Shown here one piece after another: positions 40,812 to 44,803 of a DNA stretch of 50,600 bases. The notes beneath the pieces are model-generated. The model saw nothing but the letters and a program-made list of their open reading frames with translations, ran no database searches and was not told the DNA's origin. Source of the DNA: Candidatus Pacearchaeota archaeon. Its GTDB lineage: Archaea; Nanobdellota; Nanobdellia; Pacearchaeales; UBA284. The stretch covers positions 1-50,600 of the forward strand of contig JAPLYB010000036.1 in assembly GCA_026395795.1 (NCBI GenBank). Reading direction: 5' to 3'. The translations under genes and the position numbers were made by a program. Positions within the stretch are counted from its first letter, which is position 1. Each line of letters starts with the position of its first letter.

Positions 40812-42050
40812 ATGTTACAAAAGATTGATCCTGAAATCTATGAAATAATAAAAAAAGAGAAAGAAAGAGAGCAAAATGTTCTAGAATTAATCCCTTCTGA
40901 AAATTTTACAAGTGTAGCAGTCTTGCAAGCCCTTGGATCAGTTCTCACAAACAAGTATTCAGAAGGTTATTCGCATAAAAGATATTACGGCGGTAACGAG
41001 TTTGTTGATGAAGCAGAAGATTTAGCAATTAAGAGAGCAAAAGAACTATTTGGGGCAGAGCATGTTAATGTCCAACCCTATTCTGGAAGTCCAGCAAACC
41101 TAGAGGTGTATTTTGCATTGTTAAAACCGGGAGATAAGGTGCTAGGCATGAATCTAGCTCATGGCGGGCACTTAACTCATGGACATCCGATAAACTTTTC
41201 AGGTAAAATTTTCAATTTTGCCCAGTATGGTGTAGAAGAAGGAACAGAGCTTCTTGACTATGACAAAATAAGACAGAAAGCGCTAGAAGAAAAGCCAAAA
41301 ATAATTGTTTCCGGAGCATCTGCTTATCCTAGAGCAATTGATTTTAAAAAATTCCAAGAGATTTCTGAAGAAGTTGGAGCAGTAAGCATGGCAGACATAG
41401 CACATATAGCAGGACTTATTGTAGCAGGGGAACACCAAAGCCCGTTTCCTTTTACAGATATAGTCACTACAACAACGCATAAAACATTGCGAGGACCAAG
41501 AGGAGCAATGATAATGTGCAAGGAAAAGTTTGCAAAAGATATTGATCGTGCTGTCTTCCCAGGAATGCAGGGCGGGCCTCACAATCATGTTAACGCTGCA
41601 AAAGCAGTCGCATTCAAGGAAGCATCAACACCAGAATTCAGGGAATACATCAGACAAGTTGTAAAAAACGCGAAGGTTCTTGCAGAAGAATTAAAAAAAT
41701 ATGGATTTAGGCTCGTTACAGGGGGAACAGACAATCACCTTATCCTTATTGATTTAACAAACAAGAACATTCCTGGAAAAGAAGCAGAAGCAATTTTAGA
41801 TAAAATTGGGATAACAGTTAATAAAAATATGATTCCTTTTGATAAAGGTTCTCCTTTTGATCCCTCAGGAATAAGGATAGGCACTCCTGCAATCACAACA
41901 AGAGGTATGAAAGAAGACGAAATGAAAGTAATCGCAGAATGGATAAATAGAACTCTTGAAAACAAGAACAACGAAACAGAATTAGAAAAAGTAAAATCTC
42001 AGATTCGAGAACTAACAAAACACTTTCCTCTTTATCCAGAATTAGATTGA
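40812..42050 (+). CDS. glyA: serine hydroxymethyltransferase (bacterial-like, THF-dependent)
   Basis: ELIPSEN, NKYSEGY...[32 protein letters not shown]. Confidence 0.97.
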
Positions 42051-42151
42051 ATACCCCAGATCATCAGTCCAGATTGCAGTTTTATCTATATTTTGATTTA
42101 TATTCTTTTAAGAATAACTTTGTTTAAATAGTATTTTTATCTATTTAGAAA

Positions 42152-42787
42152 ATGTTAAATGAAAAAAAAGGCAAATTTATTGTTTTTGAAGGCCTAGATG
42201 GTTCTGGAAAAACATTGCAGATGCTAAAAACTGCAAGTTTTCTTTTTGATAATTATAAAAAATATGAGATTCTTTGCGCAAAAGAACCAACCTACATGAC
42301 AAAGTCTGGAAAACTGATAAGAAAAAAACTCGCCCATGATAAAGATCCAAAGAAACAAGGAAAACTCTTTCGTGCACTTTATGTTAAAGATAGAGCAGAA
42401 CACAACAAAAAGATAATCTTGCCCGCATTAAAATACGGGTGCATTGTTCTATGCGACAGATACAGCCACAGCACATTTGCATATCAACAAGCTCAAGGCG
42501 ATGTTTCATTCCAAGAAGTCTTGAATGAACACAAGAAGTATAAAATAAGAAGACCGGATTTAACACTTATTTTTGACGTTCCAGCAATCGTGGCGATTCA
42601 AAGGATACAAAAAGGAAGACGAAAGAATGAACTATTTGAAAAAACTCTTTTTCTAGAAGAGGTAAGACATAATTATTTGAAATTAAAAAGATTCTTGCCA
42701 AAGGACAATATTATAGTTATAAACGGTGATGCACCAGTTGAAGAGATTTTTGCAAAAGTTCAAAAAGAAGTTGAAAAGATAATCTGA
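42152..42787 (+). CDS. tmk: thymidylate kinase
   Basis: FEGLDGSGKT, EPT, DR.EH, CDRY..ST.AYQ. Confidence 0.95.
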   Translation: MLNEKKGKFIVFEGLDGSGKTLQMLKTASFLFDNYKKYEILCAKEPTYMTKSGKLIRKKLAHDKDPKKQGKLFRALYVKDRAEHNKKIILPALKYGCIVLCDRYSHSTFAYQQAQGDVSFQEVLNEHKKYKIRRPDLTLIFDVPAIVAIQRIQKGRRKNELFEKTLFLEEVRHNYLKLKRFLPKDNIIVINGDAPVEEIFAKVQKEVEKII

Positions 42788-42847
42788 ATCTCCCAAATTC
42801 TTCCTGTTCAGCAAGTTTTTTAATCTATCTTTTATTGTTTACTTTAT

Positions 42848-42875
42848 GCCCAGATGGCCCAATGGTAAGGCGCAT
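42848..42875 (+). pseudogene. truncated 5' fragment of a tRNA gene (tRNA-Ser-like)
   Basis: GCCCAGA-TG-GCC-CAATGGTAA-GGC-G-CAT gives acceptor 5' strand, intact D arm and start of anticodon stem, then breaks; TATA-like box ~25 nt upstream. Confidence 0.75.
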
Positions 42876-42914
42876 TAATAGAAAGATTTAAATACTTCAT
42901 AGTGTTTTTATTAG

Positions 42915-43595
42915 ATGGATTTATCAAAGAGAAATAGAAAAGTTGCGATTTCTAGATGGAAAAAAGTGATAGACAAAGAAAAGAGAGAAATTTCTTCTGA
43001 TAAAAAAACAACTATCTTAAAGGCATCTATTTGCGGTTTCCTAGCTGGTGATGGAAGCGTTCAAGCCAGGGATATGGGGAATTATATCAAATATCAAATT
43101 GATTTCTTTCCAGATGATGAAATCATGCTTGAAAGATATATGAATGATATTAAAGAAGTATATGACAAAACTCCAAGTATAAAAAAGAGGGGAAAAATGT
43201 TTATTGTGAGAATTAGTTCAAAAACAATTGGAGAGGATATTCTGCAAGAAACTAAATTTGGGTTAAAAACATGGAAAGTTCCAAACAAGTTATTTATTTA
43301 TGCTGAAGCCAAAAAATCTTGGTTGAAAGCTTTTTTTTCAGCAGAAGGGTATGTTAATCAGAAATCAATTAAAATTCAAACAGTAAATAAAGAGGGGATG
43401 CTTCAAGTATCTAGGTTACTAGCACATTTTTCTATAAACCATAAGTTTTACAGTTATCTTCCCAAAAATAAGCTCCATTCTAAGGTGTATATTATAATAA
43501 TCTTTAGAAAAGAAGAAAGAAAACGATTTTATGATAAAATTGGGTTTTGGCATTCTAAGAAAATGGAAATACTTAAAAGGTCTATTTCAAATTAG
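42915..43595 (+). CDS. free-standing double-motif LAGLIDADG homing endonuclease-like protein
   Basis: ICGFLAGDGSV and WLKAFFSAEGYV motifs; terminal FYDKIGF typical of DOD domains; no intein splicing motifs; own BRE/TATA GAAAGATTTAAATA at 42881. Confidence 0.9.
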   Translation: MDLSKRNRKVAISRWKKVIDKEKREISSDKKTTILKASICGFLAGDGSVQARDMGNYIKYQIDFFPDDEIMLERYMNDIKEVYDKTPSIKKRGKMFIVRISSKTIGEDILQETKFGLKTWKVPNKLFIYAEAKKSWLKAFFSAEGYVNQKSIKIQTVNKEGMLQVSRLLAHFSINHKFYSYLPKNKLHSKVYIIIIFRKEERKRFYDKIGFWHSKKMEILKRSISN

Positions 43596-43602
43596 TAATT
43601 GT

Positions 43603-43718
43603 GCCGCGATCGCGTAATGGTATCGCAAAGGCCTGGAATAAGAATCAATGTTCTTAACAATTCCTATCCACAAAGCCTTGCCCGCAAGGGCATCGGGGTT
43701 CGATTCCCTGTCGCGGCG
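43603..43718 (+). tRNA. tRNA-Ser(GGA) with 35-nt intron at 37/38 (43639-43673)
   Basis: GCCGCGA/TCGCGGC acceptor, AAGGC-CT-GGA-A^A-GCCTT, long variable arm GCCC-GCAA-GGGC, GGTTCGATTCC, G73; relaxed BHB. Confidence 0.9.
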
Positions 43719-43755
43719 TAAGATATTTTTATAAATCCCCAATAAATAATTATTT

Positions 43756-44037
43756 ATGGCAAACAAAGCAAAAGCGAGTCACATTCTTGTGAAAACAGAA
43801 GAGCAGGCAAAAGATATCTTAGCAAAAGTTCAAAGAGGAGAATCATTCTCTAAACTTGCCCAAGAATATTCTGTCTGTCCTTCAAAGAAAAAGGGCGGAA
43901 GTTTGGGAGAGTTTGGAAGAGGACAAATGGTTAAGGAATTTGAACATGCTGTTTTCAATGCAAAAAAAGGCGACGTAGTTCTAGTAAAAACACAATTTGG
44001 CTGGCACGTTATAAAAGTAGAAGATATTTGGGGCTAG
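43756..44037 (+). CDS. ppiC: parvulin-type peptidyl-prolyl isomerase
   Basis: ASHILVK, F..LA.EYS.CPS...GG.LG.F.RGQMV.EFE, TQFGWHVI. Confidence 0.95.
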   Translation: MANKAKASHILVKTEEQAKDILAKVQRGESFSKLAQEYSVCPSKKKGGSLGEFGRGQMVKEFEHAVFNAKKGDVVLVKTQFGWHVIKVEDIWG

Positions 44038-44149
44038 AGATAACAAGAAGGATTAATGCGGTTATATTCATTATTAATAATACCCGAAGTCAATTTCAAA
44101 AACAACGTCACTTAATAGAACTAAATCCCTTTTATATTAATTATCAAAC

Positions 44150-44803
44150 TCATATAACATCGCCAATCCAAGCAACAGAAGAATCAAGACCTATTCCAGG
44201 ACAAGCAGTATTAACCCAACTTTTAATTTCAGGCCAGTTTTCCATCTGCTCTTCTTGAAATTCATCAAATAAGAATACATAGACTTTTTTATTTTTTTTC
44301 TCTGATTTTTCCTTAAATTTTAACGCTTGATCAAGATGTAACTGTCCCCATTTTGTTGAGACTAACAGGCCGATATGATCGGCACTCAAGAATCTAACTT
44401 TAAAGGCTTTCTTTCTCATCTTAAATTTTTCTACCTCATTCCAAGAGATTTCTGAAAACTCTTCTGTTAAAGGGTTATAAGTAAATATTTTTTTTTGCTC
44501 TGTTAAAGACAAGGCCATTTGGATAAGATGAAATTTTCCAGATCCAATATAAAGAAATGCTTGAACTTTAGACTCAACAGCAAGTGCTGACGCAGCATTG
44601 CATCCCAAAATCATTCCGGTCCCATTTAAAAAAACATTTTTCCCGGTTTTCTCTAGTTTTTTCTTGATTTCTTTTAAAAAATCAGAAAACTGAATCGTAG
44701 AAATAAGCCCTACCTTTTCAGGAAGCTTCTCAAAGTTTTTAAGAAGAGCTGTAGGAACAGAGTAATCGGTCTTGTAACCTGCTTTTATTAAGAGTTGTTT
44801 CAT
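44150..44803 (-). CDS. dph2: diphthamide synthesis protein Dph2 (short form)
   Basis: STIQF, ILGC, GSG.FH, STK.GQ, NTACP. Confidence 0.85.
   Translation of the reverse strand: MKQLLIKAGYKTDYSVPTALLKNFEKLPEKVGLISTIQFSDFLKEIKKKLEKTGKNVFLNGTGMILGCNAASALAVESKVQAFLYIGSGKFHLIQMALSLTEQKKIFTYNPLTEEFSEISWNEVEKFKMRKKAFKVRFLSADHIGLLVSTKWGQLHLDQALKFKEKSEKKNKKVYVFLFDEFQEEQMENWPEIKSWVNTACPGIGLDSSVAWIGDVI

Follow-up and report, generated by a model that had tools for sequence, protein, structure and literature searches.

How could a homing endonuclease gene that stands free, outside any intron or intein, come to lie in a tRNA gene that the cell should need? The question is raised by a locus in the window, the 50,600 nucleotides (nt) analysed here of a contig (JAPLYB010000036.1, C23) from a Candidatus Pacearchaeota archaeon, whose assembly (GCA_026395795.1, G000) comprises 956,882 nt in 44 contigs, with 33% G+C, and is 87.5% complete. 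A LAGLIDADG endonuclease gene lies there between a 28-nt 5' piece of one tRNA-Ser gene, hereafter the remnant, and a complete copy of another, a tRNA-Ser(GGA), hereafter the carried tRNA. Homing endonucleases in essential genes normally hide inside self-splicing introns or inteins. In this locus an essential tRNA gene, present as a single copy, appears to have been broken and a spare supplied that the enzyme cannot cut, which would be another solution to the problem of survival. We consider it likely that the locus is a homing-type selfish element composed of a promoter, a free-standing LAGLIDADG gene and a complete tRNA-Ser, a reading carried by the anatomy of the locus, by the entry of nuclease and tRNA as one unit in relatives of the element and by the distribution of alleles within the genus.

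A broken tRNA-Ser, a nuclease gene and a complete tRNA-Ser

The original prediction, made from the letters of the window, had described tmk, a TATA-like box, a tRNA-Ser fragment, a second TATA, a LAGLIDADG open reading frame (ORF), a tRNA-Ser(GGA) and ppiC in this order. All of them were found where it had placed them, and the gap between the stop codon of the ORF and the complete tRNA is 7 nt, as it had said. Lengths of proteins are given in amino acids (aa) and BRE denotes a B recognition element:

42152-42787, + strand: tmk (thymidylate kinase), the upstream flank; Pfam Thymidylate_kin, 3e-34
42813-42825, + strand: TATA-like box AAGTTTTTTAATC, putatively that of the destroyed resident tRNA-Ser, with its centre ~27 nt 5' of the remnant
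42848-42875, + strand: 28-nt 5' remnant GCCCAGATGGCCCAATGGTAAGGCGCAT of a resident native-type tRNA-Ser, recognised by its identity to tRNA-Ser genes
42880-42895, + strand: left end of the cassette with a BRE/TATA-like box AGAAAGATTTAAATAC, the putative promoter of the nuclease, ~24 nt 5' of its ATG
42915-43595, + strand: intact LAGLIDADG endonuclease ORF, 226 aa, free-standing, monomeric, with two motifs; Pfam LAGLIDADG_3, 9.7e-15
43565-43580, + strand: candidate promoter of the carried tRNA, GGAAATACTTAAAAGG, within the 3' end of the ORF
43603-43718, + strand: complete tRNA-Ser(GGA) of a divergent 'alt' type; Rfam tRNA, 43 bits (cut-off 29), and ARAGORN with introns
43756-44037, + strand: ppiC-type peptidyl-prolyl isomerase, the downstream flank; Pfam Rotamase_3, 5.2e-27

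The box at 42813-42825 agrees in position and form with those preceding nuclease-free tRNA-Ser genes, and the box at the left end of the cassette is kept in the congener G002 and appears in many relatives as TAATAGAAA..TATA. The LAGLIDADG gene is the only ORF between the two tRNA copies in an insert of ~0.85 kb. It has its own start, stop and TATA-like box and lies within neither an intron nor an intein; group I introns were sought, without a match at E up to 10. In the 37 nt that separate the carried tRNA from ppiC, no 3' remnant of the resident tRNA was found.

The remnant comprises the acceptor strand, the D-arm, position 26 and the first 3 nt of the anticodon stem, and it ends at the cassette junction. 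It is identical to the adjoining tRNA-Ser(GGA) at 18/28 positions, differing at 10/28, and to the CGA and GCU genes of the same assembly at 25/28, to the GGA gene of the congener G001 at 26/28 and to the gene of G004 at 27/28. These identities (18/28 to the neighbour, 25-27/28 to the others) bear out the claim that the fragment is what is left of a different tRNA-Ser allele and not a target duplication, and the D-stem difference is compensatory, as had also been claimed (GCC/GGC versus GCG/CGC). With a profile of tRNA-Ser 5' ends nhmmer detected the remnant at E 1.4e-5 in 104,906 nt, and with a class-wide profile at only E 0.22 in 302,412 nt; taken with the identities, this points to something more than a chance likeness.

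The small genome and its many intron-bearing tRNA genes suggest a DPANN-like archaeon. Because the genome comes from an archaeal group of small genomes with many disrupted tRNA genes, and its assembly is incomplete to the extent given above, the piece could be taken for a split-tRNA 5' half, to be joined in trans with a distant 3' half, as in Nanoarchaeum equitans. The original prediction had named a matching 3' half elsewhere as the finding that would speak for this. The assembly holds 72 TCTGGGC sites and no orphan half; a single site is preceded by a T-arm, and it is the 3' end of the intact tRNA-Ser(CGA) on C34. The acceptor GCCCAGA of the remnant cannot pair with the TCGCGGC of the carried tRNA. 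Moreover, the piece is followed by AT-rich, promoter-like sequence instead of a G+C-rich complementary leader, all four serine anticodon families are already served by intact genes in the assembly, and the equivalent piece of relatives is decayed or truncated. We regard a split tRNA as largely refuted, its chance of being the correct explanation being minimal.

Two further arrangements were considered and rejected. An integrase-mediated, tRNA-targeting island does not agree with a LAGLIDADG gene as the sole ORF between the copies, nor with copies that match at 18/28 rather than forming near-identical repeats. An endonuclease encoded in a bulge-helix-bulge intron does not agree with a complete tRNA after the ORF and an upstream piece that has no partner, an arrangement which is the same in the relatives examined.

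Both catalytic acidic residues that had been claimed for the nuclease are present, in GFLAGDG (D46, codon 43050-43052) and FFSAEG (E144, codon 43344-43346), and the 14 aligned relatives, without exception, have the GDG of motif 1 and retain the acidic residue of motif 2. An AlphaFold2 model built from the alignment of relatives (predicted local distance difference test 92.9, predicted template modelling score 0.88) has, in combination with Foldseek, the pseudo-dimeric alpha-beta-beta-alpha-beta-beta-alpha fold. The best Foldseek matches are PI-PfuI, the Tli VMA intein endonuclease and I-DmoI (E 1.8e-11 to 1e-9, probability 1.00; template modelling scores of 0.62-0.81 normalised to I-DmoI) at an identity of only 17-23%, and a sequence search against solved structures returned weak intein matches alone (E 6.5e-4). 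The nuclease fold is intact according to this model. The ratio of nonsynonymous to synonymous substitutions (dN/dS) is 0.08 against the 74%-identical G002 homologue, with dS saturated. The same assembly has further LAGLIDADG domains at C12:15518-16087 (- strand), C14:6131-6790 and C29:8057-8602, in frames of 418, 1234 and 1059 aa, the long ones of which are probably inteins; none is close to a tRNA call.

Nuclease and tRNA-Ser inserted as one unit in relatives

The relatives of the nuclease are tied to tRNA-Ser, as had been predicted. In a profile search of 401 genomes of the order, the top 15 loci, with free-standing ORFs of 147-257 aa, all adjoin a tRNA (15/15), which is a tRNA-Ser on the same strand in 12 and a tRNA-Arg(GCG) in three loci of a sister group; a LAGLIDADG class of ~295 aa with weaker scores has no tRNA link and represents another family. 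The survey of the phylum, again of 401 genomes, contributed 22 more strong loci, spread over many families of the same class. A tRNA-Ser was found at 33 of the 34 Ser-linked genome loci (22 GGA, 11 CGA), starting between 74 nt before and 28 nt after the stop codon of the ORF, or 136 nt after it in one decayed copy; at the 34th the contig ends 42 nt after the ORF. Among 80 metagenome loci an automatic rule assigned a tRNA to 64, eight more, with further insertions in the D- or T-loop, were recognised by eye and eight were too short to judge. Thus, wherever a locus is long enough to judge, the gene always adjoins a GGA or CGA tRNA-Ser. Nuclease copies decayed by stop codons were seen in L058, L059, L081, L092, L096, L099 and L100. 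Viral contigs, covered by a single pattern-based scan, gave one weak match (24% identity, L126) and no sign of a viral vector.

How the two genes came together can be read from the pieces around them. With profiles of tRNA-Ser ends, 101 deduplicated loci (302,412 nt) yielded 15 orphan 5' matches, on the coding strand and ending 39-50 nt before the start codon, and seven orphan 3' matches, whose starts lie 2-12 nt beyond the carried tRNA. The upstream GCCCTGA of L174 pairs at 7/7 positions with a downstream TCAGGGC, in L171 GCCCATG and TATGGGC pair at 7/7 including one G-U, and in L128, whose nuclease is a 60% relative of that in the window, the remnants pair at 6/7. The complete tRNAs that lie between these remnants have other acceptor stems. 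ORF and complete tRNA therefore entered a resident tRNA-Ser together, replacing its anticodon arm, and in these relatives nuclease and tRNA are inserted as one unit. The junction is constant: it lies three nt after the D-stem GCG (GCG-YAN / TAATAGAA, the slash marking the junction) and is followed by a TATA box. The closest nucleases, those of G002 and L127 (74%), L128 (60%) and L129 (59%), are accompanied by the same tRNA type behind remnants of the other type.

The pairing of remnants also bears on a rival explanation, according to which there is no cargo and a LAGLIDADG gene landed in the dispensable upstream copy of an ancestral tandem tRNA-Ser pair. Tandem tRNA-Ser genes do exist in the order, with three after the ORF in L055 and two in L056, and the window lacks a 3' remnant after its complete tRNA. 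Against this, seven loci do have a 3' remnant after the complete tRNA, and its pairing with the 5' remnant in L174 and L171 places both ORF and tRNA within one old gene. The fixed distance of 23-28 nt between ORF and tRNA in 40/84 loci would be unexpected for independent insertions, and a tandem pair occurs in none (0/4) of the nuclease-free congeners presented below, each of which has a single gene of native or alt type. We find this explanation improbable.

Some more distant members have other surroundings. The sister-group ORFs next to tRNA-Arg(GCG) (L047 1417-2160, L057 1417-2145 and L058 669-1400) have a longer N-terminal extension. Their tRNA-Arg is on the strand of the ORF in L047 and on the opposite strand in L057 and L058, and other tRNA pieces lie around; in L047 a 5' piece GCCCCCA precedes the ORF and pieces ending in TGGGGGCG and TGTGGGCG follow the tRNA. 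Two distant LAGLIDADG ORFs, each with an in-frame stop (L061 1438-2160 and L065 1513-2196), come after a tRNA-Pro(UGG) which they overlap or from which they are 5 nt away.

Alleles of the locus in the genus and the carried tRNA

If a cassette had entered a resident gene, related genomes should hold the gene without it. We compared six genomes of the genus, G000 and five congeners (G001-G005), all of which share the order glyA-tmk-(geneX)-tRNA-Ser, where geneX encodes 133-138 aa on the opposite strand:

G001: intact tRNA-Ser(GGA) of the native type (acceptor GCCCGGA, D-arm TGGCCCAATGGTAAGGCG, variable arm TTTCCGCAAGGAT); no nuclease, no remnant; 26/28 to the window remnant
G004: intact tRNA-Ser with anticodon AGA and acceptor GCCCAGA; no nuclease, no remnant; 27/28 to the window remnant
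G000: alt-type tRNA; nuclease present; 28-nt native-type remnant
G002: alt-type tRNA; intact nuclease of 224 aa; decayed remnant with the same junction (GCGTAT / TAATAGAAAGATTTAAATA)
G003: alt-type tRNA; no nuclease; its spacer retains GCGCATTAAGGTAAATAAAGCAC, equal to the end of the remnant plus the left end of the cassette
G005: alt-type tRNA; no nuclease, no remnant

The predicted empty alleles thus exist, as an intact native-type tRNA-Ser without nuclease at the same locus in G001 and G004. The nuclease is patchy at this one locus, being present in G000 and G002 and absent from G001, G003, G004 and G005, and tblastn of the nucleases against the intergenic spacers of these four revealed no relics of the ORF (best E 0.48). 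A GCCCAGA followed by AGAAATTTAAGATA in G001 was considered as a relic of the element and discarded as too short to count. Since the invasion, which would have taken place in an ancestor shared with G002, G003 and G005, the element has probably been inherited vertically, and G003 and G005 probably lost the nuclease later and kept the tRNA.

Two of these congeners have tRNA-Ser genes of interest in themselves. That of G004 (L036 975-1058, G004:C3:72974-73057) has the anticodon AGA in a loop CTAGAGA, which is unusual for an archaeon. In G001, the GGA gene (L035 1134-1217) and the GCU gene (L037 849-946) differ only in the anticodon arm (97% identity over 72 nt), which suggests a recent isoacceptor conversion or anticodon switch.

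Contigs of four DNA sequencing runs were also compared with window positions 41500-44800. Joints from 42872/42873 to 43682, candidates for nuclease-free alleles, were rejected, as the anticodon arms of other tRNA-Ser genes lie between their two sides; they represent other isoacceptors, whose genes agree with the remnant at one end and with the T-arm at the other. The letters of the G004-type AGA anticodon arm were also seen between the sides of a joint in a lake-water run. In run X3 the ORF had no cover, yet no contig bridged it either.

The same distribution speaks to a possible host function. WhiA is a regulator derived from a LAGLIDADG protein, and the gene of the window might likewise have been domesticated as a DNA-binding factor for the expression or maintenance of tRNA-Ser, with the remnants as unrelated debris. 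This would agree with the strict linkage to tRNA-Ser, with strong purifying selection and with WhiA being among the fold matches, at a lower rank (E 1e-8). It does not agree with the conservation of both catalytic residues in 14/14 relatives, with a nuclease present in 2/6 genomes of the genus and in only ~22 strong loci among 400 phylum genomes that were sampled, or with decayed copies and two congeners, G003 and G005, that manage without it; moreover, debris would not lie at a constant position and have acceptor strands that match. We consider a domesticated factor very unlikely.

The carried tRNA itself looks foreign to the genus. Its alt type is defined by the acceptor GCCGCGA/TCGCGGC, the D-arm TCGCGTAATGGTATCGCA and the variable arm GCCCGCAAGGGC, and is found at the same locus in G002, G003 and G005 with 90-94% identity over 72 nt. 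In a tree built on 72 nt only, the alt D-arm and variable arm cluster with the tRNA-Ser of another family of the order (support 0.895) and the gene does not group with the other Ser isoacceptors of the genus. Plain ARAGORN missed the carried tRNA, which was detected by Rfam and by ARAGORN with introns allowed; the latter places a canonical 37/38 intron of 35 nt at ~43639-43673.

Two claims about this tRNA found no support. It had been described as promoterless and dependent on read-through, which would lock the nuclease gene in place. However, GGAAATACTTAAAAGG, in the 3' end of the ORF, has its centre ~27 nt 5' of the tRNA, is conserved in G002 and resembles the boxes that precede the nuclease-free tRNA-Ser genes of the genus. 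T[TA]TATAA forms the end of the ORF in 40/84 relatives, with the tRNA beginning 23-28 nt further on; TATA-like boxes were counted in 56/84, in AT-rich sequences and without a chance control. Because of the box inside the ORF, of this family pattern and of the two congeners (G003 and G005) that retain an alt-type tRNA without nuclease, the carried tRNA is probably not promoterless and has a candidate promoter of its own. The second claim, that the canonical intron is a resistance device, lacks support because the native-type allele of G001 has a canonical intron as well, so that the one in the window is not special.

How, then, may the carried tRNA escape cutting? In the window and its closest relatives it differs from the remnant in the D-arm and the anticodon stem. 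Many other relatives have a D-arm equal to that of the remnant plus 15-43 extra nt just 5' of the anticodon, which is the position of the junction. Such a non-canonical insertion was present in 15/33 carried tRNAs from genomes and 45/64 from metagenomes, and after removing a block of that size in silico ARAGORN called a tRNA-Ser(GGA or CGA) in 15/15. In five genomes it was found in 5/5 nuclease-linked and 1/12 other tRNA-Ser genes. A first, cruder test, in which a 12-mer of the carried tRNA was matched to the upstream region, showed only a weak trend, with at least 9/12 matching positions in 12/48 loci with an intron at the site and 2/33 without. In a second test with 9-mers, run on 36 loci with a recognisable remnant that are related and hence not independent, the remnant had the carried D-arm in 14/20 loci with the insertion and in 1/16 without (Fisher 1.3e-4). 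The carried tRNA of the window has the canonical 37/38 intron only and none at the junction site, so that here it is sequence divergence that could protect it. This pattern of either an intron or divergence is what a need for self-immunity would predict. Nuclease-linked tRNA-Ser genes of L134, L146, L163, L179 and L196 apparently have, as judged by eye only, at least three insertions, in the D-loop, the anticodon stem, the canonical site and the T-loop.

The coincidence of the extra intron with the junction would also fit a different history, in which the ORF once resided in a bulge-helix-bulge intron (tRNA-Ser 26-30), the 5' exon was duplicated behind it and the result is now a vertically inherited, immobile relic. 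The intron-encoded I-DmoI is among the closest solved structures, and G000 and G002 are alike in locus and level of divergence. Nevertheless, an ORF between the two exons of one functional tRNA was seen in none of 33 genome and 72 metagenome loci, the carried tRNA is often strongly unlike the remnants, which a simple exon duplication would not give, and the presence of the gene is patchy both within the genus and across families, with conserved catalytic residues and a low dN/dS. As an account of the present state we hold such a relic to be unlikely, though the element may have originated in this way, which would not conflict with a homing cassette.

Proposed mechanism, points against it and known systems

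For the homing cassette that we favour, we propose the following cycle, in which the cleavage site, the immunity of the spare, the role of the remnants and any present-day mobility are deduced from sequence. The nuclease would recognise an ordinary tRNA-Ser(GGA) gene across the D-stem and anticodon stem and cut it near tRNA position 29-30. The break would be repaired from a copy bearing the element, with the flanking remnants of the old tRNA as homology arms, and the resident anticodon arm would thereby be exchanged for nuclease plus spare tRNA. The spare would keep the cell alive, and would remain uncut through a differently spelled D-arm and anticodon stem, as in the window, or through a short extra intron in the site, as in many relatives. 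In the window the presumed resident promoter and the first 28 nt of the gene survive upstream, and a 3' remnant does not. According to this scheme, the element would be able to break an essential gene because it brings a spare along.

Several points weigh against this interpretation. For all members of the family, cleavage, target site and transfer are predictions. The window copy, which lacks a 3' remnant, may no longer home by the proposed route. Furthermore, G000 and G002 share the locus and their elements diverge (74% aa identity) about as much as glyA does (80% aa), as would be expected of vertical descent, and nothing points to a recent move within the genus. The tmk of G000 shares only 30-33% identity with those of four congeners; among themselves these four reach 66-94%, and the adjacent glyA is at 79-80% between G000 and the congeners. 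Thus, the whole block perhaps came by a larger recombination and not by homing at the tRNA. In this regard, the tmk of G000 is 39% identical to the one preceding the same cassette in G302 (L053); possibly a xenologous tmk came in together with the cassette and took the place of the old one. In two other genomes tmk lies directly 5' of the remnant (L053) or further upstream (L049). The destroyed isoacceptor is of uncertain identity, since the remnant plus 22 nt upstream is closest to the promoter region of the tRNA-Ser(GCU) of G001 (88% over 49 nt). The strong purifying selection (dN/dS 0.08) would also fit a host function. As for the extra introns, their boundaries were set by eye and ARAGORN, and the Rfam tRNA model at its gathering threshold missed the two-intron tRNA-Ser genes of six relatives, in which the acceptor, D, T and variable arms were read by eye and by ARAGORN after removal of the block. 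The shortness of the tRNA tree and the relatedness of the 36 loci, given above, and the fact that the 9-mer test followed a weaker one belong to the same side.

Parts of the arrangement have counterparts elsewhere. The nuclease shares the single-chain, two-motif fold with one acidic residue per motif with archaeal monomeric LAGLIDADG enzymes (I-DmoI from a 23S rRNA intron, PI-PfuI and the Tli VMA intein enzyme), but these sit within an intron or intein that removes itself, whereas the window enzyme is free-standing, with an extra N-terminal helix and a whole tRNA gene as its partner. In fungal mitochondria, free-standing endonuclease genes enter a protein gene, such as atp6 of Allomyces, and supply a replacement 3' end while the old end becomes a pseudogene. 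The likeness lies in the substitute for the displaced part and in the displaced piece that stays as a remnant; those elements supply only a gene end, in frame, in organelles, and here it is a whole tRNA gene with a probable promoter of its own, in archaeal chromosomes. Integrase-driven islands and proviruses insert in tRNA genes and restore them. With them, too, the insert is flanked by an incomplete tRNA copy at one end and a whole tRNA at the other, but they depend on an integrase and generate near-identical direct repeats, and the ~0.85-kb insert of the window has no integrase and copies that differ at 10/28 positions. Phage T4 SegB is a free-standing GIY-YIG enzyme in a tRNA cluster, where intronless homing brings about co-conversion of the neighbouring tRNA genes. 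It resembles our case as intronless homing in a tRNA region and differs in nuclease family and host, in lying between tRNA genes and not in the wreck of one, and in having no dedicated replacement copy. The abstract of PMC13096335 mentions SegB together with tRNA.

The logic of the extra introns is closest to collaborative homing. As described in PMC6083498, cyanophage S-PM2 has a free-standing F-CphI gene beside an intron-containing psbA whose intron interrupts the F-CphI target, so that both spread together. Relatives of the window element with a short intron at the junction site follow the same logic. The F-CphI system portrayed there concerns a phage, an Endo VII-type nuclease, a protein gene and a group I intron, and no gene is destroyed; the present one is archaeal and consists of a LAGLIDADG nuclease, a tRNA gene and an intron presumably spliced by proteins, with the resident copy left broken. 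For the window itself we rejected collaborative homing, as its carried tRNA has no intron in the target site and the canonical one is also in the native allele of G001. In a survey of group I introns in archaea, all 39 lay in rRNA genes (PMC6125680).

Full-text literature searches, whose coverage leaves out subscription journals, found no prior description of a LAGLIDADG-plus-tRNA cassette. The arrangement appears, from its sequence, to be a previously undescribed form of free-standing homing with protected cargo. A broader proposal is that there is an undescribed class of archaeal selfish elements, widespread in one class of small-genome archaea, namely tRNA-replacing homing cassettes that use the remnants as homology arms and a non-canonical intron as immunity, with an arms race driving the turnover of tRNA-Ser alleles and the introns at odd positions; we put it forward tentatively and rate it at somewhat less than an even chance. 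Should the homing-cassette reading of the locus be confirmed, it would represent the first archaeal LAGLIDADG homing system that is free-standing and directed at tRNA genes, a core component of translation would be horizontally replaced by a selfish element, and a defined nuclease family would be linked to non-canonical tRNA introns. It is an old idea that introns and splits shield archaeal tRNA genes from mobile DNA. A nuclease-target arms race would offer a concrete, testable cause for disrupted archaeal tRNA genes, and for the idea of protection by introns or splits a single enzyme with a handful of synthetic substrates would then suffice as a test. The family would, in addition, supply compact nucleases whose natural targets lie in conserved tRNA genes.

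Finally, two minor features were observed next to nuclease-free tRNA-Ser genes. In L034 (1226-1442, G005:C5), ~200 nt between geneX and the tRNA-Ser promoter are flanked by a direct repeat, ATCCTTAAGTAAAT, and may be a small insertion element. In L109, L114 and L119 (G404) and in L115 (G561), a second copy of the last 12-15 nt of the tRNA lies 60-110 nt after the gene, preceded by a common CCGCACG-like motif, which looks like the footprint of another small element targeting tRNA 3' ends.

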